A stretch of DNA of 64,000 nucleotides from Elusimicrobiaceae bacterium (GTDB taxonomy: Bacteria > Elusimicrobiota > Elusimicrobia > Elusimicrobiales > Elusimicrobiaceae): NCBI GenBank assembly GCA_028700325.1, contig JAQVSV010000001.1, positions 28,085-92,084 on the forward strand, in the 5' to 3' direction. This document shows, one piece after another, positions 9,752 through 59,779 of this stretch. Position numbers and translations under genes: made by a program. The notes below the pieces were generated by a model. That model was not told where the DNA came from. It saw only the letters and a list, made by a program, of their open reading frames with translations, and did no database searches. The stretch's first letter is position 1. Every line of letters begins with the position of its first letter.

Positions 9752-9926
9752 AAAGAACGGCGGGAAAAGCGGACAGCCTGCGGCCCGCGGTTTGATACGA
9801 TTGCCGTGGTCTTATGAACCTGCTGCCCCGGCTTGCGCCGAACAAGCTATCGGTTGCTCCGCCAGCGGGTCTGCACGCTTGATTTCTCCCGTTCGCGCGC
9901 CGGGTTTTTGCGAGCGGAATGTATAA

Positions 9927-9958
9927 AACCGCCCGGCTGCGACAGCAGCCGGGCGGTT
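9927..9958 (-). terminator. rho-independent terminator downstream of the DUF2892 gene
   Basis: 14-bp stem AACCGCCCGGCTGC/GCAGCCGGGCGGTT with a 4-nt loop. On the minus strand it is followed by TTTATACATT. Confidence 0.5.
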
Positions 9959-9983: not shown

Positions 9984-10262
9984 CTACTTGATATTGCGCA
10001 TTTCCTCCGGGAACCGCCGCGCCTTGATCTTTTTGTCCGCCGGGCAGGTGTTTACGCCAAGCAGTGTATAAACCGGACACCAGCCGACAAACGCCACCAC
10101 TATCGGCAGCAGGCCCAGCAGGCCCAGCCAGTTTTTGTAATAAAGGCCGATCGCCAGTATCACAACGCCGCCGGCGACGCGGATCCATTTGTCCACATGC
10201 CCTACGTTTCTGCACATTTTTCCGTCCGCCATAACGCCCCCTTTTTTATCTTCAGCTGACAC
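9984..10262 (-). CDS. DUF2892 (YgaP-like) small membrane protein
   Basis: 92 aa with two hydrophobic helices. The GWCPVYTLLGVNTCP motif is characteristic of DUF2892. Confidence 0.65.
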   Translation of the reverse strand: MSAEDKKGGVMADGKMCRNVGHVDKWIRVAGGVVILAIGLYYKNWLGLLGLLPIVVAFVGWCPVYTLLGVNTCPADKKIKARRFPEEMRNIK

Positions 10263-11265: not shown

Positions 11266-11520
11266 ATGGCGGATAAAAAAGTTTTTTTATATGCGTTGAG
11301 CACCTGTATCTGGTGCCGCAGAACCAAGGAATTGCTTACAGCGCTGGGCGTGGATTATGACTTTGTTTTTGTGGACACTCTGCAGGGCGCGGAAAAAGAG
11401 AAGGCGGTTGCCGAGATGGCGCGGCACAATCCGTCCCGCTCGTTTCCCACCGTGCTGATTAACGGAACGGTGATCGTGGGGTTTCAGGAAGCCCGGATCA
11501 GGGAGCTGCTGCAGAAATGA
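11266..11520 (+). CDS. glutaredoxin-like protein (CxxC = CIWC)
   Basis: MADKKVFLYALSTCIWCRRTKELL...FPTVLINGTVIVGF is a glutaredoxin fold pattern. The upstream in-frame extension from 11152 has no homology-like features. Confidence 0.72.
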   Translation: MADKKVFLYALSTCIWCRRTKELLTALGVDYDFVFVDTLQGAEKEKAVAEMARHNPSRSFPTVLINGTVIVGFQEARIRELLQK

Positions 11521-12047
11521 CCGATATTGACAAAAGCAGGCTCGCCGGTTTTTACCGGCAGCTTCAGCGGCAGGCGCAGGACGGGGGCTATTTTCTGAAC
11601 CCGGATTCTGGTTTTGCCATGGAACTGGCTGAAAGCCTGCTGATCAACCAGAACCGCTACGGCTATCAGGCCTGCCCCTGCCGGCTGGCCGACGGCGAAC
11701 GCGAACTTGACCAAGACATCATCTGTCCCTGTGATTACCGCGACGAGGATCTCGGTGAATACGGCGCCTGCTACTGCGCGCTTTATGTATCCAAAGAAGT
11801 GGCGGAGCGGAAAAAGCAGGCCGGTTCCATTCCGGAGCGCCGCCCGCCCGATCCGGCGGACCGTGCAAAACGGAAACCCGTGCCGTCCGCGCCGGGAACA
11901 GGTTTGTCGGGGCTGGCTTATCCTGTATGGCGGTGCCGGGTGTGCGGATATCTGGCCGCGCGGGACACGCCGCCCGGCGTCTGTCCGGTCTGCCATGCGG
12001 AAAAGGACCGGTTCGAGCTCTTTATGCCAGGCGGAAACACACGGTAA
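11517..12047 (+). CDS. ferredoxin:thioredoxin reductase catalytic-subunit-like domain fused to a C-terminal rubredoxin-type zinc/iron ribbon
   Basis: The FTR-B cysteine pattern is CPCR..(17)..CPCD..(13)..CYCALY. The C-terminal WRCRVCGY...CPVCHAEKDRF has two CxxC pairs. The start overlaps the glutaredoxin stop (ATGA). Confidence 0.72.
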   Translation: MTDIDKSRLAGFYRQLQRQAQDGGYFLNPDSGFAMELAESLLINQNRYGYQACPCRLADGERELDQDIICPCDYRDEDLGEYGACYCALYVSKEVAERKKQAGSIPERRPPDPADRAKRKPVPSAPGTGLSGLAYPVWRCRVCGYLAARDTPPGVCPVCHAEKDRFELFMPGGNTR

Positions 12048-12064
12048 CGGGCATGAATATTATT

Positions 12065-12096
12065 AAAAAGGCCCCGCCGGCAGGCGGGGCCTTTTT
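12065..12096 (+). terminator. bidirectional rho-independent terminator
   Basis: AAAAAG-GCCCCGCC-GGCA-GGCGGGGC-CTTTTT has A-tract and T-tract flanks. It closes the grx-FTR operon on the plus strand and could also terminate a minus-strand RNA from the repeat element. Confidence 0.7.
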
Positions 12097-12097
12097 C

Positions 12098-12278
12098 TTA
12101 TAAATTCCGCACACAAAAATCCGGCGCTGGCCGGCATGGCATGGCTCAGGCGGGGCGATGGAGTGTGTAACCCTGCGCAAGCAGTGCAAACGAAGTCTGG
12201 ACCAAAAGGAAACCCCGGCTTGCCGGTAAAGCGTAATAACAACCGGCAGGCCAATGGCACAAGCCGGGGGAGTTTCAT
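12098..12278. repeat. copy 1 of a duplicated ~180-200 nt structured intergenic element (candidate sRNA; strand unresolved)
   Basis: Aligns end to end with 59575-59774 in the same orientation. It shares 49-nt and 27-nt identical blocks. Nested helices are predicted. See findings. Confidence 0.55.
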
Positions 12279-12434
12279 CGCGAAGATAAGGTAATGACGG
12301 CGCGATATACGGAGGTTGCTGCCCGGTAGGCGGGTGCGTGGCGCGCGGGCGGGGTTATAGGCGCCGGGCAATGCAAGCTTGACGGCGGGGGCCCTGCATT
12401 GGTGTGTGTGCGCCGGCAGTCCGTGCAAGCTGGC

Positions 12435-12473
12435 GTGGCGCGGGCCGCGGATTTTGTCCGCGGCCCGCGCCAC
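12435..12473. other. long GC-rich stem-loop
   Basis: GTGGCGCGGGCCGCGGA-TTTTG-TCCGCGGCCCGCGCCAC forms a 17-bp perfect stem, 22 nt downstream of the TM1266-like gene stop. It has no clear U-tract on the minus strand and TTTCAGT on the plus strand. Confidence 0.4.
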
Positions 12474-12495
12474 TTTCAGTCAAACCGGCCGGTTT

Positions 12496-25649: not shown

Positions 25650-26873
25650 ATGATATTCAAAGCTGCGAAAAAGGCGTTGTTTGTATTGACAGGCTGTATG
25701 TGCGTTGCTTCGCCCGCTTTTGCGGAGGCGGTGCCTTATTTCAGCGCGGATGTGCTTGGCGGACAGTATTTTTACGACGGCAACAGCGGTTCTCTTTCGG
25801 CCAACGCCGACGTGACCGCTTCCGTAGGGCTGGACGCCGGGAGCTGGTTCCTTACGCCGATTTACGAGGGGCGCTATCAGAGCACCCAGCAGGTTTATGA
25901 TATCGTGGGCGGCGGCACGATGTTTAACCAGATGATGAGCCATCGGCTGTCGCTTTCCGCGATTTATGAGTTCGCTTATGGCTGGACGGTCAAGCCGGAA
26001 GCCGGCTACAAGATTTATTATCTGAACGAAACGCGCGACGAAAAATGGGGGACCGGGCTTTTTGATTACCGCCGCACGAACACCGCCGTAACGGTGGAGC
26101 ATATTTACGCGGATCCGTTTTCCGTGCGGTTCGAGGCTGATCTGTACTGGCTGAAATTCCCGAATTACACCTCGCTTGAATCGCAGGTCGGCGGCGATAT
26201 GGCGCGGGAGCTGGCCGGCAAGGATGTGATTAATTCCAGCAATCTGGCGTTTACCGCCAGCATCAACGGCCGCCTGAACATGTTTTTGTGGGATGCGGCG
26301 CTGGGCTACACCAGGCAGTCGTTCGGCAGCCAGCATGTGGTCAACGAGCTGGGCCTTTTTGACAGCGCGACACGCAACGACAATCTTGTTTCCGGGCGGG
26401 CCACGCTGAAATATCCGGTGAAACTTTCGCCTTCCTCGATTGTCATTCCGGGGCTCAGCCTGACCTGTGCGCATAACGGTTCCAACCAGAACAGCTATGA
26501 CGCCACCAGCGCGAAGTTTGTGCCGGAGTTTTATAATTACTCGAAAGCGCGCGTCGGCGCCGACGCGGAGTACCGGCGGCTGGTGCCGGAGTATAAAAAC
26601 AAGTATCTGGCGGTTGATTTCGGTTTGTCTTACGGACGGACCAGCTATCCTTCAAGGCCGGTGCAGAATTCCGCCGGGGCGTACGGTACGGACAATATTT
26701 ATCTCAACGAGTATGTGTGGCGACTGTCGGGCTCGTACCCCGTGTCACAGAAAGTTGATGTCGTGGCCAGCGTCATGTACGGCAACCAGACCTCCAACAT
26801 GAGCTATGAGAAACTATATGTTTACAATTTCAACATTTTCACCTATCTGGCCGGAGTGAAATATGAATTCTGA
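25650..26873 (+). CDS. outer-membrane beta-barrel protein (orphan family)
   Basis: Signal peptide MIFKAAKKALFVLTGCMCVASPAFA. Alternating-hydrophobicity strands rich in Y/G/S/N. The C-terminal YLAGVKYEF ends in Phe, an OMP sorting signature. A TTG at 25647 is an alternative start. Confidence 0.55.
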   Translation: MIFKAAKKALFVLTGCMCVASPAFAEAVPYFSADVLGGQYFYDGNSGSLSANADVTASVGLDAGSWFLTPIYEGRYQSTQQVYDIVGGGTMFNQMMSHRLSLSAIYEFAYGWTVKPEAGYKIYYLNETRDEKWGTGLFDYRRTNTAVTVEHIYADPFSVRFEADLYWLKFPNYTSLESQVGGDMARELAGKDVINSSNLAFTASINGRLNMFLWDAALGYTRQSFGSQHVVNELGLFDSATRNDNLVSGRATLKYPVKLSPSSIVIPGLSLTCAHNGSNQNSYDATSAKFVPEFYNYSKARVGADAEYRRLVPEYKNKYLAVDFGLSYGRTSYPSRPVQNSAGAYGTDNIYLNEYVWRLSGSYPVSQKVDVVASVMYGNQTSNMSYEKLYVYNFNIFTYLAGVKYEF

Positions 26874-29800
26874 AAACATGGCAGTCGTGCCGCCTGAAAA
26901 ACGGGAGAACATTATGGCGCGGTTCTTTAAGCATTTGACCAAATACCTGTGCGCGGCGGTTGCGGCGGCGGCCTTGTCCGCGGGCGCGGCGCAGGCTTAT
27001 ACCATAAGCGGCTATGTGCGGGATCAGAGCGGCAACAGCATTTCAGGCGTCAGCCTCAACGGCTTTTATCCCGGCGCCACCATTTACGCCACTACCGACG
27101 GCGCGGGTTTTTATTCGCTTTCATTTCCCACCGCCGGCGTTTCCTGCGCGGTGGTGCCGCAGGTAAGCGGGCCGGGCGTATATTTCACACCCGAACGGGC
27201 GGATTTCACGCTCACGCAGGATGTCACCAGCGATTTCGTGCAGAATGTGAGCGCCCAGGACGGCGGCCAGTGGGAGTTTGCGGAGGTGGCGGCCGGCGTT
27301 TCCGCGCGGCTGGCCGCAAATGAATCCGGCATACCGTTTATGGCGTATGCCGTAGAGCAGGGCAGCGCGGTTTACGCGAGTATAGCAGGCGGTTCTATTC
27401 AGGCTCTTTTTACGGCTCTCGCCGATACGGCTGCCGTGCCGGCTCCCGCAGTTTACGGTGGCCACTCTTTCATGGCGTATAAATCCCTCTCATCAAATAT
27501 CATGCTGGCAAGCGATGAAACAGGAGTGTGGACTTCCACAATAGCGGCTGGCGCGGGGCCGTCGCTTGACGTGTCTTTGCGGGTAAATTCGTTCGGCAGA
27601 TATCTGCTGTACCGCGGCACGTTTTTGACATTGATGCATGACGGTGCGGAGTCCGTCGTTTCGACTGATGCGGCCTGCGGCCTGAAATCGGCGCTGGCGG
27701 TGGATTCGTCAGGCACGGCGCATGTGCTGTACAGCTGTTCCGGCTCGCCGCAGCGGCTTTTTTACGCGAAGCTGTCGGGCGGGGAATGGGTTTCGGCGCT
27801 GGTGGCGAGCGCTTCGGAGGATACGTTCGATTCCGTTTCCCTGGCTGTTGATTCCGGCGCGCTGCCCTTCGCGTCCTATGTGCTGGCCTCGTCCGCTGAC
27901 GGAAAACGCACGCTTTTCGCGGCGCTGCCCTCCGAAAGTTTCACAGCAGAAGTAAGCACCGGTATCGTCAGTTACAATGCGGTCGCGTTTATAAACGAAA
28001 CGGGCAGGAGCGTGCTGTTTACCGCGACCGACGGGTCCGGCGTGCCGTACCTGCAGAACCGGACTTACCTGTCTTCAGCCGAATTTTCCGACAGCATGAT
28101 AAGCCAGGCTTACGCGCGGCAGATTTCGCTGGTGTCCGAAATCGGGCCCTATATATCTTACGCGACACCGGAAAACCGGATTTTTGCAGGGCGGATGGCC
28201 ACTTCTTCTGTCACCTGCGCTATTTATGGAGCCGTTACGCAGAACAGCGCCGGTCTGTCCGGCGTGACTGTTTCTGTTTATGGCGGCGCGTCCAGCCATA
28301 CTGCCACCACCGATGCGGGAGGCTATTATGCGGTGACGGGCCTTTCAACCGGATCTTATGTGATCACGCCGGCGCTGGCGGAAAAGGTGTTTGAGCCTGC
28401 GCAGGCGACTGTCAATCTGCAAAGCGATACCGAGATTGATTTCACGGCTGCTACAAAAACCTATTCGGTAAGCGGCTCGGTGGCGGCGGGCGGGGTCGGG
28501 CTGGCTTCGGTGAGCGTGACGGGTGTCAGCGGCGGCGAGTCCGCTTCGGCTGTCACCGACAGCAGCGGCGTTTATCTGCTGACCGGTCTGCCCGCAGGCG
28601 TCTGCACTGTCGCGCCCGGCCGGGCCGGTTATGAATTTGCGCCGGCCGCGAGCAGTTTTACCCTTTCAGCGAACACGACGGGGATTGATTTTGAGGCGGC
28701 CCTGTCGCAGCTTTACATAGCGGGCTACATCATTACGGAAGCGTCCGAGCCGGTGGCGGGCGCTACGGTTACCGCGTACAACGGCCAGATCTCATGGATG
28801 ACGGTCAGTGATGCCGCCGGTCTGTATTCGTTTGCCCTGGCGTCGGGTTCGTATCTGCTGGCCCCGGTGAAAGAAGGCTATGCGTTTACTCCTTCCTCCC
28901 GCACGGTTTCGCTTGCTTCGGCAAGTATTTCTGGCGTCAGCTTTGTCGCCGTTTCCACCGCCAGCATACCGCTTTATGCGCTTGCCGGACAGGTTACGAA
29001 AAACTCCGCCGGGTTAAGCGGCGTCTCGATAGGAATAACAGACGGCAGTCACAGCGAGGAAGCCGTTACCGACGGATCCGGCAACTACGGATTTTATGAT
29101 CTGATGGCGGCGCAGTACACGGTCACGCCGCAGCTGGAAGGGCTGGAGTTTTCGCCGGCTTACTCCGTGGTGACGGTTTCGGGCGACGTGTCGGGCGTGG
29201 ATTTCACGGCGGAGGATTCCGGGGTTCTTTCCGCAACGGTTACGGCGGTAAACACGCCGCAGGCTTACGCGTGGGAGAACTATCCGGCATTCACGCTGGC
29301 GCTGTCGGCCGACAGGAATGTTTTTGTCGGATCGGTGACGGTCAGTTTTGCCGACTCCGGCGTGTCGTATAACGATATCTTCGCGATGTTTCTGTATGAG
29401 AACGGAACTCCGGTCGCCAGTTCCTATAACAGCGATTCCACACTCGGGTCGGCAGTGAAACGGGAAGCGCTTATGCCGGTTTCGCTTTCCATAAGCACCG
29501 CGACCCGCACGTTCACTTTAATGATACAGCCCAAGTCTTCCGCTCTGGGCAAAACCGTTTATCCCGTGTTCGCCGGGTTCAGTTCGGCGGCGGGCCAATC
29601 CGTTACGCCGCTGCCGGTGGGCGGAAATGTCGCGCTGGTCGGCTACAAGGCATATGCCGCCAGCTCCGGCGGTCTGGCGACAAGCATTTCCCTGACCGCG
29701 GGCCAGAGTGCGCTGATTGTCGCGCAGGGCCAGTGGCAATATTCCTCCACCGGCACCGCCGGGCCGGACGGGGTGTCCGGTTCCGTGTGCGGAACCGGGT

Positions 29801-32800
29801 GCCAGCTGCCCGGCTCGCCGCGCGGCATGCTGCTGGCGCGCATCGGTTATTATTCCACGGTTTTTTATCCCGTCGGCTCAAGCGCGACGATAACTTCGCC
29901 GGCCGGAGCCGCGACCGACAGCGTCTATCTGTCCATCAACGACGATTATTTCACTGATAACAGCGGCGGGCTTTTCGTTCTGCCGCAGATAGTTTCACGC
30001 GTGATTGTGTGGACCGGAGCCGGCGGCACGGAATACGCCGCCGAACCGCTCAACTGGAACACCGGCGTCGTGCCCGCCAACGGCGACACGGTGCTGTTCA
30101 GTTCAATGGTTGCGAAAGCCTGCGCATGGAATATCTCTGCCCAGCCGAAACTGATTACGCTGTATTATTATCCCGGCGCGCTGAATGTCGTCGGCAGTTA
30201 TACCCTGCTGGCCGAAACGCTGACGATCAATAATTCCAGGCTGCGGATGAGCGGCACGGCGGCCGGTGCGCGGCCCTACATCAGCGTGGGCACGCTTAAC
30301 GCCATTGATTCCGAACTGGTCTTTTCCGATGCGATGGGCGTTTCTGCCGATAATTTTTCAGTGCTGCGCGGCACGGTAAGCATCACCGGGTCGGATTATG
30401 CCGGTTTCGGCGGGTGCAGCGGGCATTCCGTGGTGCTTGAAAACGCGGCGCTCGATATCAGCAGCGTGGCGTTCCAGAATGCCGGCACCATAAGCGTGCG
30501 CGGCGGTTCGGTTGCGAAATTCGACAACGTGTCGGTCAATTTGAGCGCGGAGGCCTCCTCGCCAATGGTGACTGTTTACGGGTTGTCCGGCTACAACACC
30601 TTTGACCGGTGGAATTTTTACAATTACGGCGGCTCGGCGGTTTACAACGTTATTTCCACGGGCAATGCGTCCGGCGCGCAGGTTGTGTTCGCCAATGCCG
30701 GCGGCAATTACATGGGCAGTGTCCACAGTCTTAATCTGGATGGCGCGCTGCGCTGGGAGCCGGACGGCGGCGGAACCGCCGCGCTGGCGCTCACCGCGGT
30801 TTATTCCGCTACAGACACATACACTTACCGGTTTGAAGTGACGACGGTTACCGGCACGCCGGTCGCGGCAGGCAGCGCGGCAGCCGGAGCCAAGAGTATT
30901 TTATTCAGCGGGCTTACCGCTCCGGCCACTTATTATATAAAGGCATACGCCGATGAAAATGGCAATGCTGTCGCTGACGGTTATGAGCCGAAAGGGAAGG
31001 CGGCTGTCGCGCTGGTCGCCAATTCCAGCGGCGCCGCCAGCGTTGCGCTGGCTGATTTCGGCAAAGCCGCGGGGTATCTCTACAGCGTTTCACAGAGCGG
31101 CAAGGTGCTCGGACAGGCGTACAGCTCCGGCGCGCTGGTTGATCAGGTGGAGCTGGGTTCTCTTGCTGACGGAACCACCGTGCACTGGGAGCTTTATCTG
31201 CCGACCGGAACTTATACGCTTAACGCGTTTGTTGATGTCAACGGCAGCGGTTCGCGTGACAGTTTCGAAGCCGGTTTCTCCGCGGAAAACGTTGAAATCT
31301 CAAAAGGCGCGGAGAATTATCTGGGCAACGCCGGGCTGGTCAGCGCGGCTGTCAGCACGGTTTCCGTGTCGGCCGCGGCGGGGCATGACGGCATCATTTA
31401 TGCGCGCGGCGGCTCCGCGACGCTGTTTAATCTTCTGGCGTCGGCTTCAGGCGACCCGGCGGTCATCTCCTCGTTCTCGTTTTTCTCCGCGGGCAGTTAT
31501 TACGCGGCGGGCGCGTACGCTGTCAATGTCACGCGCGATTCGAACTATAACGGCCTGTGCGATGCCGCGGACAGCGTGCTCGGTTCCGCGTATGCGAACG
31601 GCGGGGCGGCGGTTCCGCTGACGGTGAGTTTCAATCCGGTCGTTGTTTCCACCGGGCAGAGCGAGCGGTTTTGCGTCACGCTGGCCGGAGCGGTTGCGCT
31701 TGAGCGCAACAGTACGGTAGGCGTTTCGCTTGCCTCTTCCGGGATCGGCGCTGCGAACGGGCATGTGGAGTTTGCCGCCATAACCTCCACCGTGACGGTT
31801 AAATTCAACGTGGACGCGGCTGTCGCGGTCAGCTCCTTTTCTGGCGGAACGGGCACGGGCGTGTATCTGGAACCCGGCATGGTGGTCAGTCTGGTTTCCA
31901 CCGGCACCTGGTATATTTCCGGTTCCGCGGCCGGCGCTGGCGGAGCGAATTACAAAGGCGGTATTCTGCCGGATGTCAATTCCGGCGCGCTGATGGCGCG
32001 CGTCGGCATCGGTCCGTGGTTCGCGGTGGGTTCGGCTTCGTCGTTCACTTATACGATGATTTATAGCGGCGAATTGTATTTCGCCATGAACAAATACCAG
32101 ACTTCATCGGCGTCCGGCAACCTGCTTGTTGATTTCAGCGCGGTCAATCCCGGCAACGGCGCGGCGGGCAGCGTCAGTTACGCCGGCGCCAAAGCGCAGC
32201 AGCTTTTTATAAAAGCGCAGTCCGTTTCATCCGGCGATGTTCTGGCTTCCACCAGCATGGCGTTGAACGGAGCGGGTTCCTATCCCTACAGCCTGACTGG
32301 CATTTCCACCGGCACGGCGTTTTTCATTAAAGCCTATTGGTCTGACGTTTCCACTTCCGCGGTCGGCCAGTACCGCGAAGAACTCACCATGTACACAGGC
32401 AGCGTTCGCACCGGTCTGGATTTCGCGGTTTTTGACGGGTACGGGGCGCTGCCGCTCACGGTCACCTATTACGGCTCGTTCGCAGATAAACTGATTGCGC
32501 ATATGATAGTCGGGGCCAGCGAGTTCGAGCGGACTGTTGCAACCGGTACGCAGACCCTTGCCCTGCCCGCGCCGGGTATTTACCGCGTGGCCGTTTTCGA
32601 GGATCGCAACGGCGACGGAGAACCCGCCGGACTTGAGAACATGGGCATGTTCGGGTATGACGGGCCGGTGGCGCTGTTCGAGCAGAACGGCGGCACCGTC
32701 GCGGTTACCGTAGGCGGGACTTCCGCGCCTGTCGCGATTACCGTATTGCCGAAAGGCGGACTGGCGGGCGTCGGAAAAATCTGCGGTCTGTCGGGCCGGT

Positions 32801-35800
32801 TCATGTTTGTTGCCGGGCACGGAATTCCGGGCACGGCCGGCTATCAGGCCGAAAACTGGGAGAGCAGCTGGCTTGACGGCGCCGCTGCCAACGCAAGCTG
32901 CCTTTCCCTGAACTACGATATAGGAATGCTGCGCGCCGCGACTGACTATTCCCTGCTGCTGTTCAATGATTCAAACATGAATGACATCTATGACGACGGC
33001 GAGAAATTTTCATTGCTGGCGGGCCCGATTTCGATCGCGACGGGGATGGTCGTCAACCGCGATATCACGCTGGTAGCCGTTTCTACCGTGCCGGTCATGC
33101 CGTCGGCCATAAGTACATACGCCGTGACGGCAAGCTCGATTGTATGGACCTGGCCTTCGGTGTTCGGCGCTACCGGCTACATGCTTTTCTTTACCAGCGG
33201 CAGCACCGTCACTCTTTCAGCGACGTCTTATACGGAAACCGTGGGCGTTCCCAATACCAGATCGGGTCTGTACGGAGTGGCGGCTTACAATGCGATCGGG
33301 CTTGGCCCGGTAAAAACCGTGGAGAACGCTGTGTACACAAGGGCGGCAAAGGTTGCCCTGTCCGTCATGTCGGCGGATAATGTGTCCGTGCGGCTTGCTG
33401 TTGACCGGGCGGGCAATCCCGCCGCGACGGCTGTGAACATTTATCGCTCGGCCAATTCCACGGCGGCGTATGTGCTGGTAAGCTCGCTTACCGCCGGAGC
33501 TACCCAGTTTGCCGACATTTACGGTGTTGTGCCCGGCGTGCAGTACTGGTACGCCGCCACGGCGTTCAACGGCAATTATGTGGCGGGGGAGACGTCCGTG
33601 CCGGTTTCAACGGTCACGCCCTCGGCGGCTGGCGCCGATTATGTGCGCGGCACGGTATACTATTCCGGGCGGCAGCAGGGTAACCTGCGCGTGGAGCTGT
33701 TTGGGTCCGCCGTGCGCGATGGCTGGGCCGTGGCGAACGGCAGCGCGGCTTTTTCCGCGATCGCTTCTTTCAACGGGTTCATGCTGGCCGGAACCGAATC
33801 CGGCGGGGTGTATAAATCCACCGACGGGATCAATTGGGTTTCCGCCGCGACGGTGAGCGGAAGCGTAAAGAGTTTCGCGCAGAACGGTTCGGTGTACTAT
33901 CTGTCAGGCTCGAAAGGGATTTATTCCGGCTCCGGTTCGGGCAGCTGGTCGCTTGTGTACGCCGCGTCATCCGGCATGGGCAGGCTGCTGGTTTATAACG
34001 GGAAAGTCTATTGCGGGGACGGGAACCGGCTGGCGCAGTCCTCCGGGTCCGGGTTTGATGTTGCGGAAACGGGCATCCCAGCTGCGCGTGCCATTTCCAG
34101 CCTTGCTGTGTTCGGCGGTTATATGTACGCCGGCGTGCTGCCTTCCGTTTCGGCCTATACGGAAACGCAGGGCGATTATGTGTATCGCGCGGCGCTGGCC
34201 TCGCTCGGTTCATGGACTGCCAGTTTGAACGCCAAGATGCTTGGCGTGTATGATCTTGCGGTATGGAACGGCCGGTTATATGCGGCCAGCGGCAATTCGG
34301 GCCTGATATTTTCGCTGGAAACGGCGGACGGAGTCTGGTCGAATACGGCCGTAGCAGCTACCAAAGTGGTGAATTTCAGCAGTTTCAGGGGCCAGCTGGC
34401 GGTCGCGGCGCAGACCGGGCCGGGCGTGCTTGTTTCGCCCGAACACGGGCGGTGGGCGGCGGTTGCCCCGTCCGGGGTTGTTTATATGAACGGGCTGTGC
34501 CAGTTCAACGGCAAGCTGTACGCCGCGGCGGCGGCAAGGCTGTACGCGGGATTCGCCCAGCCGGCTTACAGTGTCGTGTCGCCCGTCCAGAGCCAGAATT
34601 CGTTTTATATTTCCGGCGTGCCTGCCGGCACGCCGTATTATCCGCGCGCATTTGTTGACGTTACCGGCGACGCGGTGCTGGAGCCCGGCGAAGACAGCGT
34701 TTTTTACTCTACTTCGGTCATGGCCGCGGGCACGGCGAACATGACGCTCGCGGTTTCGACCGGCGCGCCTGCGGCGCCCGGCGCGCCGTCAGCCTGCGCC
34801 GTAAACGGGGTCGTCAGCGTGTTGTGGACGGCGCCGTCCTCCGCGTCCAATCTGCTGGGCTATCGCGTGTACCGCAGCACGGCGCAGGCCGGCCCTTACG
34901 CGGAAATTTCCGGTTCTGAACCGGCCGGTTACGTGCCGTGGAACAGAACCTCGTTCAGCGACTCCAATCCGCCGAGCGGTTCTGTCTATTACCGGCTCAA
35001 GTCGCTGGACTGGGGTTATAACGAGAGTGCCGGCGTTACGGGGCTGCCGGTGAATGTTTTGCAGCCGGGCCGGATAGAGGGTTCGCTATACAGCCTTTCA
35101 GCGTCCACATCGGTTCAGTATTATGTGACCGTATCAAGCGTTTCCAGCCCGCTGGGCGCGGCGCTGTATTCCATCCCGCTTGCGGACGGCCAGTCTTATT
35201 CCGCGCCCAACCTCAGCGACGGTCTGTACTATGTGCGCGCTTTCGCCGACGCCAACGCCAACCGTGTGTTTGACTCCGGGGAAGCGCTGGGCGCTTACGG
35301 CGGCATAGCGTATCCGTACGGCGTGTATGTGAATTACGGATCCGTCAGCGGCAGCAAGAATGTTACGGTGTGCCCCGTAACCCGGATCAGGCCGGGCGAC
35401 AGTCTGAATGTTGTAATCAGCTCCGCCGACTGCGAAATCCGCGACTCGGGTGTTTCGCGGCACGGGAAAATCTTTTCGTTCGAGGTGGGGTACGGCGACG
35501 GCAAAGTGTCGCCCGGTTCCGGCATCCAGCTGACGGCTTCGGGCGGCGGGCTTGGTTCGGCCGAGCTGAGGCTGATTGACCCGGATTTCAACGCGATGTT
35601 CAACACGGGCACGATTTATTACGGCGCGGATACCGAAGGCTTTTATTATCTCGAAGCGGCCGCGCCGGCGGAGAACGCTGCCGGCGATGTCAACGTGTCG
35701 CTTTACATCAATTCCAATTCCGGAGGAAAGATTACCGGCGTCGCCAGCTATTACGGCGCAAGCACGGGCACCGCGGTTTTCATGCTCTACCGCAAGGCGG

Positions 35801-38800
35801 AGTATGACGCGGGCAACTACTGGCCTGTTAATATGGCGACCGCTCCTGTGGCTGACAATGCCGCCAGTTTTACCATGTACGGCATGGAGAACGGCCTGTT
35901 TTACATGACCGCGTATGTGGATGTTAACGCCGACGGCGTGCGCGAAACGTGGGAACCTTACGGTTTTTACGGGTCAGTGCAGCCGGAAGCGCTGGCCGTG
36001 TCTAGCGGAGCCGCCAGCCGGGTATCGCTGGCGCTGACCGACCCCGTGATGGGATCCATCAGCGGCTATGTGACTTATTCCGGCAGTTCGCGCGGCAGCG
36101 TGCGGGTTGAAGCGCGCCAGCCGCGGGAAGGCAATGATTCGAACGACTATGTGCTTTACGCTTCCACAATGTTCGCGCGCGCTTCGGAAAACGTAAGCGC
36201 GCCGTTTACGCTTGCGGGGCTGCCGCCTTCCGCGAGCTATTACATCACGGCGTATGTGGACGCGAATGACAACATGTCAGGCGACACGCTGGAACCGAAC
36301 GTTTTTGAAGGACCTTATACGGTAGCGGCCGGCTCGGTGACGGAGAACGTGTCCGTTTCGATCGCCGATATCGGCACCGGCGCGCCCGGTTACGCTTCCA
36401 TTACCGGCACCGTCACCTATGCGGGCGGTGCGGTGACGAGCCGGCTTATGCTCGGTTTTTTTACGGACACCGAGGGAAGGCATATGCCCTATACCGCTTT
36501 CGTCGAACCGGACGGAGCCACCGACACCTGGCATTTCAGCCGCAGCGGAATTATGGGCGGCACCACTTATTATATCGGCGCGGTGCTTGATTTCAATTCC
36601 AACGGGTTTGACGATGCCGGCGAGCCGAAAACCATGTTTATGGACGGCGACGGCAATCCAGTCCCCGTTTATCCCGCGGCGGATGGCAGCGCGGCGGTTT
36701 CCATGACGCTGTCTGCGCTGCCGGACGGCAGCATTTCGGGAACGGCGCGGTATTACGGGTCGCAGGCCGGCAAGTACATGAGCGTCAACATTTATTCCGA
36801 CAACTGCCGCAGCGATTATTGCAGCGCGCGCTACCGCGTTCTTCTGACAACCGCTACGCAATACCCGTTCACGGGCGAATTTCTGCAGGACAGCACGAGC
36901 TACAGCATTTACGCCTATGTGGACGTAAACGAGAACCAGACCCAGGATAACGGCGAGCCGGATTATTCCAGTTATCCCGATAAACTTGAACTGGGCGAGG
37001 CGGACCGCGCCCTGACGGGCGTGGATTTTACTGTCACCCGGTCCGAAGACCGCTGGAATAACGCCACGCTCCGCGCTTCTTTCGATTACGACGGCGCGCA
37101 GCGGGGCGATGTGTACATGCGGCTGTATCAGAACGGCGGGGCGGTCGCTTCGCGGACATCCTCGCCCGTAAGCTATACGGACGGAGCGGTTGTGGTGATG
37201 GCGGGCCTTTCCACCGGCGTGTATACCGCCGACGCGTTTATTGATACCAACGGAAACGGGCTCTATGATTCCGTATTCGAGCCTTACGCGCAGGTCAAAT
37301 ACGGCGGCTCGGCGCAACTGGCTCTGACTTACAAAGATCCCGTGCTTTACGATGCCAGCGCGACGTTTAAAGATCCCGGCTCGGCGAGCCTGTCGAGCGG
37401 CGCGCTTACCGTGGCGGGCCTGATCGCGGTTAAATCTTCTGCGGCGGGCGCTTTGCGCACGCTGCTGTTCAAGTATTCCGACAGCGCGGACGCGATGCAG
37501 ATTCCTTTGCTTAACGGCCTGATCGCCCGTACGGCGGGCGTGGGCTGCAGTTCCTATTCTTTCACCGCGCTTTCATCGGGCAATTATCTGGTGCAGGCGT
37601 TTATTGACGTCAACGGCAATTACCAGCCGGATGACGGCGAGCCGTGGGGCCAGAGTGCGGTTGCCCTTGTGTCGCCGGTTCCGTCCAGCGGCACGCTGGC
37701 GCTTGATTTCGCGGTGTCGGACAGGACCTCCCTTAATGTCGGCGGCGAATTCGCGTATCAGGCGAGTTCCGCCACCGGATATGTGCAGGAACGGCCCGGT
37801 TCTTACGCCAGGCTGTTTTCGATCAGCGGTTCCGCCGGCGACGTGATCAACGCCGGCATGACGCCCGCCAGCGGGTTTTCGTATGCCCGGCTCTATCTGT
37901 ACGGGCCGTACATGAACCAGACGGGTTCCGCGCTGCGGTATAATCTGCTTGCCTCCGCCGAGGCCGACGCGCAGACCGGAGCGGCGAGCATTCTTGCTTA
38001 CAAACTTGCGCAGTCCGGAGTTTACACGCTTGCGGCGGTGGCTTACGAAGAGGCCGCGGCCGGCGGTTTCAAACTTAAATATCTGCGGTCCGGGCAGGGC
38101 AGCGGCTCGATTTCCGGAACCGTTGACTATACCGGCAGCCGCGGCGGAAAATTCATCGTGGCAATATTCGGCGACGCGAACGTATACACCGGTTCCGCGC
38201 TGCTTTACACAACTCTGCCGGTGGCCGGCGCGTTCAGTTTCAGCGGTCTGCCGGGCGGATCGAACTATTATATCGGCGCGTTTATTGACACCAACGGCAA
38301 CGGCATCCGCGATGCCGGCGAGGATTACGGTTATTATTCCGTGGCCGGCTCGACCGTGCCGCAGGGCGTAAGCGTGCTCAACGGGCAGGATGTGTCCGGT
38401 TTGCGGGTTACCGTCAACAGCGTATCCGATCCTGCCTCCCAGGCCCAGGTCAGCGGCGTGCTGAACTACTCCGGTTCGCTTGCCGGCAACGCCCGAGTGG
38501 AAGCGTGGACCAGTTCCGCCTACACCGGCACGCCGGCGGGAGTGCGCAATATTGCGTCGCCCGTATATCCGCAGGCGTTCAGCATGCAGGTGCCCGGAGG
38601 CTCGGCGTATTACTTCCGCGCTTATGCGGATTCCGCGCCCTACGGCGAGTTTGACTTGAATGCGGAAGCCGCCGGCGCGTACAATTCGGGCCAGCCGGTC
38701 TATTTGAAACAGGGCGGGAACTCTTCGCTTGATTATGTCATACAGCTTAACGATCCCGGATATGATCCGACCGCTTCCGCGGTCGGCGGAGAGGGTTATG

Positions 38801-41800
38801 CGGCGCTGGTTTCCACATCCGCGGCCGCTGCCTCTTCTTATTCCGGGCAGATCAATTTTGTCGCGGGCGCGAGCGGTATCCAGCAGGGCGGCCGCATAAG
38901 CGTGGCGCTGCCGTCCGGCCTGTACGCTACGCTGACCACCGTTACGGCATACGGGTACGGAGTAGTGCAGGCCAGCGCGCCCGGTTACGATTCCGGGACG
39001 CTGAGTGTCAGCGCGGGCCAGTCTTACGCCGAGCTGACCGTGCTTTCGGAAGCAGGCCTTGCCGCGGGCGCGACGGTGCAGATTACGATCGGCCCGCTCT
39101 ATCTGCCATGTGCCAGCGGCGATTTCGCGTTCAGCGTAGGGTCCAGCCAGAACGGCTCGCTGGCGCCGAAAGCGCTGCGCAGCGGCCAGCCGGTTCTGAG
39201 AATTCTGTCCGGCTCGGCCACGCGTTTTACCGGCAGGCCGGCGGACGCGGCCGAGTCTGCGGCGTATAACTTTTCCATAGTGTCGGGCGAGGATGTGCCG
39301 TTCGTGGCGACCGCGCTTGACACCTGCGGCAATCCCGCAATCGCCGGGTCAACCGTAAATGTGAATATCCATGCCCAGAAGCAGTCTACGGTGACGTGGA
39401 TGTACAGCGACGATCCCAGCGTGCTGTTCAGCACCGGTTCGCAGTTTGTTTCCGTCGCGACGGTGGCGTTCGCGGCGGGCATGAGCAGCGCGCCTTTCAC
39501 CGTCAGGGCCACGCAGGCCGGGGCGCAGAAAACCATGGTGTTCCGGTCGTCGTCGGGCATGTACACCGATTCGGTGTATTTCACCGCGCTTGCCGGGGTT
39601 CCGATAACCGGGGCCGCCGTTTCCAGCGCGGTTTACGGGGTGGGCAGATCCTCCGTCACGATCGTGCCCAGCGTGAATGCGACCGGCGGAGCGGCCTACA
39701 TAAATTTCAATCTCTCGCTCGCGAACACTTACGACAACTGGCAGGTGGTTATAGCGTCCAAACCGTTTATTGCCGGCGCGGCGGTCAGCGAAATCTGGCA
39801 GTTCTGGGGCAGCGGCACGCCGGTGCCCGGTAAAGTGGTATGGAACGGCAGGTACAGCTATAATAACAGCATTGTGCCGTCCGGCTGGTATTATGTGAAG
39901 ATAGCATACAGCGGATTTACCGACACCAGCCTCAAGATATATGTGCAGTCGCCGGAGGTTTATGGCGTCGTGCGGGACGAGTCCGTTTCGCCCGCGGCGG
40001 CTGTCGCCGGCGCGGTGATCAACGTGTTCAGCGCCAGCGGCGGCGGATACGCCAAAACCGCCGAGGACGGCAGTTATTCCATTCCCGGCCTTTCGAGCGG
40101 CTCTTACCGGTTCGAAATCGCGGCCAGCGGGTATGTGAAACTGTCTACGCAGGTGACGCTGGGCGCCGCCCGCACCAATGTTGATTTCGGCATGGAGAAA
40201 GCGGCGCAACTGGTTATCGTGCCGTCGCTTTCGCAATCCAACCCCTATCCGAACGATAGCGGCGGCGGGGTCAGCGCGTATGACGGAACGCAGAACTATT
40301 TCACCAACATCAGGCTGAAGGGCGGCACCACCTCGTTTGTTGCGGCTGACGTGTGGGACAGCCTGACCAACAGTTATGTTTCCAGCGACAGGATCGCGCT
40401 GGATGTCACTCCGGGCGTGTACAGCGTAAACGGCTATCTGGACAATTACGGAAACGTGTATGTCGAGCGGGTGGAAGTGTCCGCTTCCGGCGCCACGGTC
40501 GAACTGCCGGCTTTTGAGAGCCGGCGCAACGTATCGGGCACGCTGACGGTAGCTTCGGCTGCGTACAGCCGGTATGCGTCGCTGAACGCGGAACCTGTAA
40601 ACGGCAACAGCTCAAGCCATTGGGGCTGGGCATCGGCTGAAATACCCGCCAGCGTTTCCGGCGCGGCTTATCATGTGTACGGGATTGACGCGGGTTCCTA
40701 TACCATCAGCGCCACGGGCGACGGACTGCCGCGCGTGTCCACGCTGGTCTATATAACAGCCAATGATCTCAGCGGCGTTGACTTCGACTTCACCAAAGTG
40801 CAGAACAACGTCATACGCGGCACCGTCACGGTGACGGTGCAGGACGCGGCGCAGTGGTCTGCCCTTAAAACCCAGATGGACGGGAGTTTTATGGAGGCCC
40901 GGCTTACCGCATGGGCGCCCAAAGGGTCTGGCTATGCGTCTGAAAACGTGAAATTCACTTCCGCGAGCGTGAGCGGGCTGGTTGCCAGAGCCGCATACAC
41001 GCTTACGGGCCTTGACGCAGGAGCGGAATACCAGGTTTACGCGGAGCTCAGTCCTTACAGCGAGGGCGATCCCGGCGAATATACATCGGTGGGCGCGCTG
41101 CCCAAACTGGTCACTATTTCGTCCGCGACAGGCTTGGCGAACCTTGATATCGGTTTCGCGCGGGCGTCCGGCACGATAACCGGCACGGTGTATCTGCCGG
41201 AGGGCAGCAGTGATTTCGGCAATGTCGCCATGACGGGCATGGTGACCCAGTCGGAAAACCCCTACGAGATCGGGCAGGTGATGAACGAAGGCGGTTCGGA
41301 TCCCGTCACTTCATTTCCGGGTTTCAGGTGTTTTAACGGCGCGGCCGCCGTTAACGGCGTCTGTGCGGACGGCGTTAACATAGCCAGTTTCACGGTAACC
41401 GGACAGAAGACCAAGACCATGGACATGGTTTTCACTTACGGAGCCACCGGGTTGAGCAGGAGTTACAAACTGACCGTTGTCAACGGCAGCACGGTTACGG
41501 CGGTTGTTGACATGCGGGCCGACACCTATTCCATTTCGGGCGCGGTCATAAACCGTATCAACGCCAATTCGCTGAATACCATGGCCAGGCTGATCGCCAA
41601 TTCCACGGTCACCGTGCCGGCGGGTTATCCGGTGCAGGAAGGCACGCTGCCGATCGAAATGGTGCGGCGCAGCGCGAATTCTTTCTCGACTACCGTGGAT
41701 TATGACCCCAGTCTGGTGCGCGTGGGTTATATCACGCAAAGCGGCACCTATACCATAACGGGCCTGCAGGAGGGCGTTTATACGCTGCGTACCCGCGGGC

Positions 41801-59063: not shown

Positions 59064-59480
59064 TTAAAGCCCCGCTTTTTTGGGGTCGAATGCGCGGGGC
59101 AGCAGATCGGCCAGCGTGAACCGCTGGAGCCGGTATTTGCCGGTTTCGTCATCCACGTTTGCCGTGGTGACGGGGGATGAGCCGGCCATAAATTCCATCA
59201 TAACCTGGCGGCACGCGCCGCACGGGTTTGACACTTTTGCCGCTACGCAAAGGGCTTTGATCTTCGTTTCGCCCGCCGCTATCGCCGTGAATATCGCGGT
59301 CCGTTCGGCGCAGTTGCTCAGCCCGTAGGACGCGTTTTCCACATTGCAGCCGCTGTAGATTTTACCCGAACCGCCCAGCGCTGCCGCGCCCACCTTGTAC
59401 TCCGAATACGGTGAATAGGAGTGCGCGCGCGCCGCTATGGCGGTTTCTATGAGCTGCTGTTCAATTTCGGGTGTAAACAA
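59064..59480 (-). CDS. cdd: cytidine deaminase (TTG start)
   Basis: Zinc ligand motifs CAERTAI and PCGACRQVMMEF. 138 aa. GGAG lies 7 nt before the TTG. Confidence 0.86.
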   Translation of the reverse strand: MFTPEIEQQLIETAIAARAHSYSPYSEYKVGAAALGGSGKIYSGCNVENASYGLSNCAERTAIFTAIAAGETKIKALCVAAKVSNPCGACRQVMMEFMAGSSPVTTANVDDETGKYRLQRFTLADLLPRAFDPKKAGL

Positions 59481-59539
59481 TTGTTGTTCTCCATTTCCTG
59501 CCGGATATCCATATTCTAGTATATATCAATAGCAAAAAC

Positions 59540-59570
59540 AAAAAGCGGCCGGAAATTCCGGCCGCTTTTT
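59540..59570 (-). terminator. rho-independent (bidirectional) terminator between repeat copy 2 and cdd
   Basis: AAAAAGCGGCCGGAAATTCCGGCCGCTTTTT. On the minus strand it is followed by TTTTTGTTTTTG. Confidence 0.6.
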
Positions 59571-59574
59571 CGTT

Positions 59575-59774
59575 TTATAAATTCAGCTCACAAAAACCCG
59601 GCGCCGGCCGGCACGACATAATGATTGCCGGCATGGCACAGCTCAAGCAGGGGTATGGAGTGTGTAACCCTGCGCAAGCAGGGCAAACAAAATCTGGACC
59701 GAAAGACCCCCCCGGCTTGCCGGTAAAGCGTAATAACAACCGGCAGGCCAATGGCACAGCCGGGGGAGTTTCAT
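59575..59774. repeat. copy 2 of the duplicated structured intergenic element
   Basis: It has the same ends (TTATAAATTC ... GGGGGAGTTTCAT) and the same identical blocks as 12098-12278. It carries a 20-nt insertion and starts 5 nt from the mtnP stop codon. Confidence 0.55.
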
Positions 59775-59779
59775 TTGAT

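Follow-up and report, generated by a model that had tools for sequence, protein, structure and literature searches.

Gene-less elements of the PATE type are documented in the IS200/IS605 family, and short motifs mark the boundaries of their relatives: in ISGst2 the transposon-adjacent motif (TAM) is TTTAT and the transposon-encoded motif (TEM) is TTCAC, and in ISGst5 the TAM is TTCAT (PMC10055086). For IS608, the available part of its description pairs the left cleavage site (CL) TTAC with the left guide (GL) AAAG, and the right cleavage site (CR) TCAA with the right guide (GR) GAAT, both guides lying 5' of a hairpin foot; a contact T-4:A+17 is stated there, and the guide includes +17 (PMC5934647).

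The window, the whole 64,000-nt stretch of DNA analysed here, holds two copies of a short repeat in the same orientation, at 12098-12278 and 59573-59774, which align over 140 nt at 88% identity (Table 1). An earlier note, made from the letters alone, had described them as a duplicated element with a 49-nt core and a 27-nt block in common and with 20-nt and 1-nt indels between the copies. All of this stands, with exactly two occurrences of each block in the window where chance would give 0; only 'duplicated' is too weak a word, as the two copies belong to a dispersed family of tens to more than 100, with a third, divergent copy in the window. The view of a non-coding, strongly structured intergenic element is likewise supported: a protein-less repeat of about 180-200 bp is real here, and it is of a known and ordinary kind. 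By analogy with the systems above we regard it, at a probability of roughly 0.6, as a non-autonomous element of the IS200/IS605 family, a PATE-like miniature composed of two ends and a short centre; the transposase class and a single-strand mode of transposition are suggested by the same analogy.

Table 1. Window coordinates of the repeat copies, their proposed motifs and hairpins, and the adjoining terminators.
Feature	Position	Strand	Remarks
Copy 1, element proper	12102..12278	+	177 nt; top strand is the window plus strand
Copy 2, element proper	59579..59774	+	196 nt; top strand is the window plus strand
Copy 3, short divergent relative	9814..9922	-	109 nt; top strand is the window minus strand
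27-nt block, identical in copies 1 and 2	12158..12184	+	In central segment; contains GCAA-loop hairpin
TTAT, left flank of copy 1 (proposed target/TAM, CL)	12098..12101	+	Metagenome similarity starts here
TTTAT, left flank of copy 2 (proposed target/TAM)	59574..59578	+	
TTTAT (read on minus strand), left flank of copy 3	9923..9927	-	
TCAT, last four bases of copy 1 (proposed right cleavage site/TEM)	12275..12278	+	TTCAT with the preceding T
TTCAT, right terminus of copy 2 (proposed TEM)	59770..59774	+	
A-run, copy 1 left end (proposed DNA guide GL, AAAA)	12115..12119	+	5' of left-end hairpin
AAAA, copy 2 (proposed guide GL)	59593..59596	+	Directly 5' of foot CCC (59597-59599); +15..+18 from boundary
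GAAA, copy 1 (proposed DNA guide GR)	12209..12212	+	Immediately 5' of right-end hairpin foot
Right-end guide position, copy 2	59705..59708	+	GACC
Left-end inner hairpin, copy 2	59607..59632	+	GCCGGCA-12 nt-TGCCGGC, then ATGGCACAGC at 59633-59642
Right-end composite hairpin, copy 1	12213..12269	+	CCCCGGCTTG/CAAGCCGGGG around TGCCGGT-loop-ACCGGCA and ATGGCAC; 49-nt invariant core inside
Right-end composite hairpin, copy 2	59709..59766	+	Holds 49-nt invariant core
Host bidirectional terminator hairpin beside copy 1	12065..12096	.	Outside repeat; single-copy depth up to ~12089
Host bidirectional terminator of MTAP gene (59780-60676, minus)	59540..59570	.	Outside repeat; flank-level depth
Host terminator hairpin of YgaP-like gene (9984-10262, minus)	9929..9956	.	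Followed on that strand by GGTTTTAT, then copy 3

The dispersal of the repeat is seen in contigs of three landfill metagenome runs that hold this genome, the DNA runs all coming from a single landfill study; full sequences are those of the three window copies, and statements on the family as a whole are drawn from summary tables of short Logan contigs. In these runs contigs pile up 20- to 190-fold exactly over both intervals, and the sequences that flank them are many and unrelated: the contig depths add up to 100-1300 over 59571-59778 and 12090-12287 and to 3-9 on either side. At copy 1 the depth is at flank level or zero outside this interval and highest over the right-end hairpin; at copy 2 the step coincides with the interval and the peak, which reaches 1311 where the flanks have about 7, again lies at the right-end hairpin. 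Loose contig ends cluster at 59573-59575 and 59774, and at 12098 and 12278, with a low-agreement consensus, and the flanks therefore differ; in most metagenome copies the alignment begins at 59573 and whatever precedes this point is unrelated, and similarity to all other copies ends after 12278. Copy 1 had been drawn on to 12480 in the earlier note, which does not hold, as 12279-12480 has single-copy metagenome depth and no partner in the window. The 68-nt left end is present in at least 45 contigs of one run (X2); of these the eight longest have depths of 6.5-9.9, against 5.9-8.6 for the single-copy flanks of the genome.

Within the family, the two hairpin ends are common to most members and the centre to fewer, where the depth has a trough and where 10-68 nt are deleted or replaced; ends more widely kept than the centre are what is expected if the ends matter. 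A 1-nt deletion at 12261 is found in about one third of the family depth, and other frameshifting indels occur too. No strain without a copy appears in the three runs, no such joint being seen at the three sites. Several Logan contigs end inside the element, and short-read contigs of this organism have their ends where it lies, which would be expected of a repeat that breaks assemblies. Searches elsewhere returned no member: an exact scan with a 20-mer of the core gave no match in the genome contig collection and one chance match, in an AT-rich metagenome contig; two degenerate or shorter patterns gave, in viral contigs, nothing and one chance match; blastn against the plasmid collection found nothing; nhmmer with the two-copy profile found no copy in 87 loci of Elusimicrobiota and other relatives; and none of the RNA sequencing runs searched holds the element. 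The lineage itself is absent from the genome, metagenome, viral and plasmid collections scanned.

The repeat has many copies, sharp ends and unrelated flanks, it lacks terminal inverted repeats and target-site duplications, and its hairpin ends are directly repeated. Aligned directly over about 60 nt, the left and right ends score 33 (shuffles 19.7 +/- 4.2, with 6 of 500 reaching this score); against the reverse complement of the right end, the left end scores 19, a value reached by 99 of 500 shuffles, and there is no terminal inverted repeat. The flanks of the three window copies (CTTAT...CGCG, TTTAT...TTGA and TTTAT...AAGA) show no target-site duplication. On the top strand each end folds into a hairpin that has a GCCGG stem and an AT-rich loop containing TAAT and is followed by ATGGCACAGC, and the inner hairpins of the two ends are homologous to each other in direct orientation. 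Folding is strong in the whole element and in the right end (z = -3.7 to -5.1; -3.8 for the right-end DNA fold); the left end alone folds no better than shuffles (z = -1.3), and its outer helix is weak (CCC/GGG). Of the structures predicted earlier, the nested helix CCCCGGCT/AGCCGGGG enclosing TGCCGGT/ACCGGCA is present, as is, on the minus strand, the hairpin CCGGC-N4-GCCGG with T5 after it; the hairpin CCCTGC-GCAA-GCAGGG is perfect in copy 2 and has one mismatch in copy 1, which reads GCAGTG; and the motif ATGGCAC(A)GC (ATGGCACAGC), described as occurring twice per copy, forms an exact pair in copy 2, not in copy 1.

The boundary motifs are conserved, TTAT preceding the left end in all three window copies (as TTTAT in two) and TTCAT terminating the right end in all three. 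From three copies and diverged relatives, TTAT as a target and TTAT as a part of the element are not separable. The guide complementarity holds as well: a pairing scheme of C1-G2, C2-G1, C3.G3 (A.A) and C4-G4 was derived here from the two motif pairs in the available part of the IS608 description, and TTAT/AAAA together with TCAT/GAAA fit all eight positions of it, in guide registers picked with the sequence in view, two or three hairpin feet being plausible. The two cleavage motifs differ at one position (T/C), and the guides differ at the matching one (A/G). At the right end the fit fails in copy 2 (GACC) and in copy 3; the family majority has GAAA before a run of five C (variants 12209 G>A and 12212 A>C; 59707/59708 C>A), and in run X2 about 78-90% of the family depth reads GAAA (59707 C>A in 230.8 of 255.4, 59708 C>A in 198 of 255.4). 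A-rich guides are of low complexity, and the complementarity of GAAAC to GTTTC may also be no more than a lengthening of the helix.

All three window copies appear to be degenerate, copy 1 in half of its left hairpin, copy 2 in the right guide and copy 3 in its interior. Copy 1 is without 20 nt of the canonical left-end hairpin, at a place where other family members have ...GGCCGGCACGGCATAATGATT (metagenome loose ends, 12130); its left hairpin foot is mutated to TCC from CCC, and it is probably immobile. Copy 2 has a canonical left end and the mutated right-end guide position given above. Copy 3, which with its flank motif spans 9814-9927 and is inverted relative to copies 1 and 2, was found by nhmmer with the two-copy profile (E = 2e-5), and a further scan gives 3 matches against 0.04 expected. 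It keeps 33 nt of the left end, 30 of them identical to copy 2, with the A-run beside CCC at the spacing of the other copies, and its right terminus is GGTTCAT; because of this left end, the equal spacing and the TTCAT terminus it is retained as a divergent relative. Its interior is unique and single-copy in the metagenomes, its right end has a marginal similarity to those of copies 1 and 2 (3 of 300 shuffles), and the predicted right guide is absent.

Each of copies 1 and 2 adjoins a GC hairpin, as had been observed before, and the hairpins beside copies 1, 2 and 3 are not homologous to one another. They had been taken as part of a two-copy RNA gene in which the terminator function is conserved and its sequence is not. 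This reading has to be given up: the hairpins are pre-existing host terminators. Relatives carry the terminator without the element at the MTAP-cdd and DAO/YgaP sites, and beside the hairpins the repeat stops sharply in many unrelated genomic contexts. The MTAP-cdd spacer measures 299 nt in the window against 115 and 127 nt in two relatives (loci L084 and L087, with 72-73% MTAP identity), in which the stop codon is followed by about 20 nt, an A-tract, a hairpin and a T-tract, with no element; the DAO/YgaP spacer measures 232 nt against 70 nt in a third (L088), which has a single terminator. At two of the three sites, then, the spacers of relatives with the same gene order are short, terminator kept and element lacking, although at 72-74% protein identity they are too diverged for joints to be placed at base level. 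In L088, which comes from another sample, the orthologous locus ends in GCCGGGGGAGGTTCAT, with the same right terminus and the same 8-nt spacing from the hairpin. In the window, the terminator at 12065-12096 stands downstream of a ferredoxin:thioredoxin-reductase-like gene (11517-12047, plus strand) and its T-tract runs into TTAT; the right terminus of copy 2 lies 5 nt from the MTAP stop codon. No transposase gene, be it tnpA (Y1) or a tnpB/iscB companion bounded by these ends, was found in the 64 kb of the genome that the window covers; the genes tested next to the three copies have housekeeping functions.

By analogy with IS608 and the ISGst elements, a Y1 (HUH) transposase TnpA, encoded elsewhere in the genome, would bind the subterminal hairpins of the top strand. 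The four bases 5' of the hairpin feet would act as DNA guides, the left one, AAAA, pairing with TTAT in the flank and the right one, GAAA, with TCAT at the terminus; the element would be excised as a single-stranded circle and be pasted 3' of another TT(T)AT, with no target duplication. The T-tract that follows a terminator hairpin could supply this TT(T)AT, and insertion there would be harmless; copies would therefore accumulate between stop codon and terminator. It is a rather doubtful extension of this scheme that the right half is an omega RNA scaffold serving TnpB or IscB in trans, or that copies have been co-opted as 3'-UTR modules. An omega RNA is hinted at, indirectly, by the conservation and structure of the right half and by the GNRA-type loop of the top strand. 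Such an RNA would imply a partner nuclease, a top-strand transcript that spans the right end (for TnpB) or the left end (for IscB) and continues into the flank, and about 100 dispersed gene-less guide-RNA loci.

The many copies with sharp ends and unrelated flanks, and the short spacers of relatives at the same sites, would also be produced by a non-autonomous element of another mobile class, be it a DDE-type MITE whose inverted repeats are very short and degenerate, an IS110/IS1111- or IS91-like derivative, or a small retro-mobilised element that targets terminators. The position right after a terminator hairpin and T-tract, like that of group IIC introns, suits the last of these, and ATAAATTCC and ATGAAACTCC can be aligned by eye as an imperfect inverted repeat (8/10); but the inverted alignment of the ends is no better than that of shuffles and none of the three copies has a target-site duplication. 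For a group II ribozyme 177-196 nt is too small, and neither a 5' GUGYG nor a domain V nor an Rfam match is found; targeting of the IS110 type is sequence-specific, but the hairpins that adjoin the copies are unrelated in sequence. We consider another mobile class unlikely on these grounds. The earlier note had named additional copies of MITE type beforehand as evidence against its RNA reading; many additional copies are found, which in spirit tells against that reading. They lack the inverted repeats and target duplications of a classical MITE, and the architecture of their ends is that of the IS200/IS605 family. Several narrower candidates were set aside: a classical DDE-derived MITE, which should have terminal inverted repeats and a target-site duplication; a TA-duplicating MITE of the IS630 type, the right-flank TA being absent in two of the three copies; SINE-like retroposition onto an A/T-tract, with no target-site duplication; and RAYT-mobilised REP/REPIN sequences, whose unit is a palindrome of 20-40 nt with a conserved 5' tetranucleotide, mostly in inverted pairs that fold into one long hairpin, whereas the unit here is 177-196 nt long, its ends are direct repeats and its centre is not palindromic.

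A quite improbable reading, in our judgement, is that the copies are structured RNA genes or 3'-UTR modules which are transcribed from the minus strand, with the upstream gene or from a promoter of their own, end at the internal CCGGC-N4-GCCGG-U5 or at the host terminator, and act as RNA, their spread being secondary. All three window copies do lie downstream of a gene that shares the strand of their minus-sense reading, and upstream of a terminator, a terminator-like hairpin with T5 is conserved on that strand, and the folding is as strong as given above; the opposite strand has a loop of GNRA type, which is preserved in the family variant that changes GCAA to GTAA (59675 C>T). Yet a search for promoter-like sites gave none, and homology starts abruptly, with no conservation of the flank on the promoter side; no RNA run holds the sequence; what is most widely shared is two terminal hairpin modules and not a core; the centre suffers the deletions and replacements described; and stem transitions (59602 C>T, 59608 C>T and 59680 A>G, against 59610 G>A) fit pairing on the plus strand better. 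The proposed check was run against Rfam 15, whose families include 6S RNA, sRNAs, riboswitches, IS605-associated and other transposon RNAs and group II introns; it gave no family match at gathering thresholds, at which the whole window yields two tRNAs only, and at E<=10 the only hits are weak ones that the flanking terminators cause. A 6S RNA or CsrB-like sRNA was rejected for lack of an Rfam match, a sigma-54 promoter (TGGCAC-N5-..GC) because it fits copy 2 only, and a 5' leader or riboswitch because a downstream gene, on either strand, is not present in both copies.

That the repeat encodes a small protein is hardly credible. The indels had been said to break every reading frame, which is not quite so: between copies 1 and 2 one plus and one minus frame stay open and co-linear over about 40 codons, namely a plus frame of 52-56 aa (MA.L..G.GVCNPAQA.QTKSGPK..PGLPVKRNNNRQANGT) and a minus frame from ATGAAA, the element beginning exactly with ATG AAA on the minus strand. 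A six-frame chimeric query, however, retrieved no related protein from a collection of 5.8 billion proteins, and the family has further frameshifting indels; a Shine-Dalgarno sequence is lacking, of the 11 codons with changes 7 are non-synonymous, and the peptide of the plus frame is polar and of low complexity.

A false lead is removed: the repeat is no novel regulatory RNA with two copies, and annotation of this lineage and screens for its sRNAs ought to mask it. It suggests that an IS200/IS605 transposase, possibly with TnpB or IscB, is active, or was so recently, in a poorly known, uncultured Elusimicrobiota-like lineage. As a miniature IS200/IS605 element it would further offer a natural example of covariation between guide and cleavage site at the two ends of one element, and its preference for the T-tracts of terminators would show how a T-rich target motif steers insertions to harmless sites in 3' UTRs.

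A terminator hairpin with its T-tract is a known target of group IIC introns, which likewise sit directly behind it, on the strand that has the T-tract 3' of the hairpin; the element differs from them in having no ribozyme domain, reverse transcriptase or Rfam intron match, and is three to ten times too short. With bacterial MITEs and dispersed repeats (Correia/NEMIS, ERIC, RUP, BIME/REP, REPIN) it has in common that it is short, structured, multicopy and intergenic, and that such repeats are often co-transcribed in 3' UTRs beside terminators; MITEs, however, have terminal inverted repeats and duplications of TA or longer, and REP/REPIN are palindromes of 20-100 nt with a GTAG-type head, none of which is seen here. 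IS608 from Helicobacter pylori, as far as the available part of its description goes, has the same pattern of pairing between guide and cleavage site at both ends, and its left guide is likewise placed some 15-19 nt inward of the boundary. In both elements the hairpin is followed, a few nucleotides on, by the right cleavage site (8 nt here, about 10 nt in IS608); in contrast to the present element, IS608 carries tnpA and tnpB and is 1.8 kb long, and the hairpins differ in sequence and size, as does the target tetranucleotide. The closest match is with the PATE-like elements, the ISGst relatives of Geobacillus stearothermophilus and the PATEs of Haloquadratum, which are likewise gene-less, present in many copies and free of terminal inverted repeats and target-site duplications, with conserved left and right ends, subterminal hairpins on one strand, a fixed left-flank motif with a related motif at the right end (TTTAT/TTCAT here, TTTAT/TTCAC in ISGst2), and four bases 5' of the hairpin feet that are complementary to these motifs. 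Compared with them, the repeat appears small for the family at 177-196 bp and has no sequence similarity to any retrievable IS; its right-end hairpin is composite, with two levels and a 14-nt AT-rich loop, and it is tightly linked to the T-tracts of terminators in an uncultured host lineage that resembles the Elusimicrobiota.

The element is real, but its description in the earlier note as a two-copy RNA is a misreading: it occurs in many dispersed copies with sharp ends and unrelated flanks. Copies 1 and 2 align end to end on the same strand, as claimed, around an ungapped 140-nt core with 88% identity. The identical 49-nt and 27-nt blocks each occur exactly twice in the window (none expected in shuffles), the 20-nt and 1-nt indels appear in the alignment, and the described helices are present, as is the minus-strand hairpin followed by T5. 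Other particulars hold only in part. The interval 12063-12480, given for copy 1, contains the repeat, but its portion 12279-12480 lacks a second copy in the window and has single-copy depth in the source metagenomes; the GCAA hairpin is free of mismatches in copy 2 but not in copy 1; and the 20-nt difference, read as an insertion in copy 2, is a deletion in copy 1, copy 2 having the common state (metagenome loose ends fall at 12130).

Coordinates of the copies and of other features in the window
Feature	Position	Strand	Remarks
Copy 1	12098-12278	+	beside ferredoxin:thioredoxin-reductase-like gene (FTR) and TM1266-like gene (housekeeping)
Copy 2	59573-59774	+	beside MTAP and cytidine deaminase (housekeeping)
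Copy 3	9814-9927	-	beside FAD oxidoreductase and YgaP-like gene (housekeeping)
Core of copy 1	12130-12269	+	140 nt
Core of copy 2	59627-59766	+	140 nt
Spacer before copy 3	9752-9813		about 61 nt between the oxidoreductase stop codon and copy 3; nothing corresponds to it in the relative's locus L088, whose spacer has 70 nt
Spacer after copy 1	12279-12495		single-copy, GC-rich, about 215 nt, up to the TM1266-like gene; outside the repeat
Hairpin in this spacer	12436-12476		strong, 41 nt, directly after the stop codon; without T-tract on the gene's strand
Long ORF	26863-44907	+	6014 aa, several internal direct-repeat families, e.g. ...FIDxNGNG...-like units at 36.5-38.3 kb; presumably encodes a giant protein of the surface or adhesin type
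Fused ORF	60701-62377	-	low-molecular-weight phosphotyrosine phosphatase domain fused to serine hydroxymethyltransferase; separate adjacent genes in L087, a relative's locus

A profile search of the window yields copy 3, in opposite orientation; its 33-nt left end matches copy 2 at 30 of 33 positions, it shares the spacing and the terminal TTCAT with the other copies, and its interior is unique. None of the three copies appears intact: half of the left hairpin is missing from copy 1, the right guide position of copy 2 reads GACC, and the interior of copy 3 is foreign.

Three landfill-metagenome runs contain the window stretch. With their contigs aligned to the loci at 80% likeness or more, summed depth is 3-9 in the flanks and 100-1300 within 59571-59778 and 12090-12287, with the steps exactly at these limits, and dozens of contigs leave the alignment at 59573-59575 and 59774 (in copy 1, at 12098 and 12278) into mutually disagreeing sequence. 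In one run (X2), the 68-nt left end lies on 45 contigs, and the eight longest left-end contigs have depths of 6.5-9.9, compared with 5.9-8.6 for the single-copy genome. Given these genome-like depths, the depth jumps and the disagreeing flanks, the genome therefore holds tens to more than 100 copies. Summed depth is highest at the two hairpin-bearing ends and lowest at the centre, where some copies have deletions or replacements of 10-68 nt; the flank consensus shows GC-rich inverted arms and then ...GTT ahead of TTTTAT. In all three runs a contig of genome-like depth joins 59700 back to 59569 (a step back of 132), which suggests a tandem or nested copy pair elsewhere in the genome. With copy 2 as plus-strand reference (59480-59860), A>G and C>T are commoner in the family than G>A and T>C (21 vs 7, 19 vs 9 and 21 vs 14 sites, one pair of counts per run); a mutational asymmetry between strands, acting on a single-strand intermediate, could account for this, as could simply the history of copy 2.

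The nearest MTAP relatives are Elusimicrobiota MAGs. Two relatives that keep this gene order, with MTAP proteins 72-73% identical, have an MTAP-cdd spacer of 115 or 127 nt, against 299 nt in the window, which consists in these relatives of the stop codon, about 20 nt, an A-tract, a hairpin and a T-tract; in a third (L088), the DAO/YgaP spacer is 70 nt with one terminator, against 232 nt. Since these short spacers have a terminator but no element, the GC hairpins by the copies, previously taken for a conserved terminator function, belong to the host as terminators, next to which the element has been added. Contig L088, which comes from another sample, breaks off (2949-2976) 24 nt past the stop codon of its FTR-like gene; its final bases, ATGAACCTCCCCCGGCTTACGCCGGGGG, are a right end, GCCGGGGGAGGTTCAT, in reverse complement. 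Of the 88 loci compared, L088 and the one in the window are alone in showing this right-end pattern, so related elements exist in a sister lineage. The TGA stop codon of the FTR-like gene in L088 lies inside the terminal TTCAT motif, so that the insertion seems to supply it. This lineage is not represented in the public collections scanned with the element sequences.

Compared in inverted orientation, the ends score no higher than shuffled sequences, and terminal inverted repeats are lacking; in direct orientation, however, left and right ends align over about 60 nt, with a score reached by 6 of 500 shuffles. In the plus-strand hairpin that forms at each end, a GCCGG stem carries an AT-rich loop with TAAT in it, and ATGGCACAGC follows the hairpin. 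The left end is flanked by TTAT in all three window copies (TTTAT in two), the right end terminates in TTCAT in all three, and none has a target-site duplication. The further copies by which the earlier note would have recognized a mobile repeat are thus found, but the inverted repeats and duplications it coupled with them are absent. Directly repeated hairpin ends, fixed motifs and the lack of inverted repeats and duplications are hallmarks of the IS200/IS605 family, and we assign a probability of about 0.6 to the element being a non-autonomous miniature transposon of that family, its transposase class read from the end features; it would then be a new family within a known type of miniature transposon. 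A mobile element of another class appears rather unlikely.

A family of RNA genes or 3'-UTR modules is improbable: its co-orientation with upstream genes and its minus-strand hairpin with U5 are real, but no sigma-70-like promoter is found at the two loci and no RNA sequencing run with the element sequence, a conserved core is absent, and stem transitions among family members agree better with plus-strand pairing. Rfam 15 gives no family for the element, as the earlier note had anticipated; gathering thresholds return only two tRNAs in the whole window, and E<=10 only weak matches, all on flanking terminators. A 5' leader is rejected, since neither orientation would put the element ahead of a gene at both loci. 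That it encodes a small protein is hardly credible; a six-frame chimeric peptide query finds no related protein among 5.8 billion, and although each strand keeps one open frame of about 40 codons, contrary to the claim that indels break every frame, other family members carry frameshifts.

For the miniature transposon, a Y1 transposase encoded elsewhere would, by analogy, cut out the top strand in circular form and insert it 3' of TT(T)AT, a motif that the T-tracts of terminators would offer in a harmless place; this would explain the constant hairpin neighbour. Interest would rise only if the structured right half turned out to act in trans as a functional guide RNA.

In IS608, four-base DNA guides 5' of the hairpin feet read the cleavage motifs, TTAC with AAAG and TCAA with GAAT (PMC5934647). 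From these two pairs we derive the rule C1-G2, C2-G1, A.A at position 3 and C4-G4, of which the source passages used here state only the T-4:A+17 contact. In the element, the left foot is preceded on its 5' side by AAAA (+15..+18) and the right foot by GAAA (copy 1 and the family majority). TTAT with AAAA and TCAT with GAAA follow the IS608 pattern at 8 of 8 positions, in registers picked after viewing the sequence and with A-rich guides of low complexity; the sole motif difference (T/C) is matched by the sole guide difference (A/G). Judged from sequence, this complementarity is good but not decisive support for the IS200/IS605 assignment. Comparable motifs occur in the ISGst elements (PMC10055086), which share their genome with gene-less PATE-like derivatives: ISGst5 has TTCAT as its target motif (TAM), and ISGst2 has TTTAT, the left motif of two window copies, as its TAM and TTCAC at its right end (TEM).
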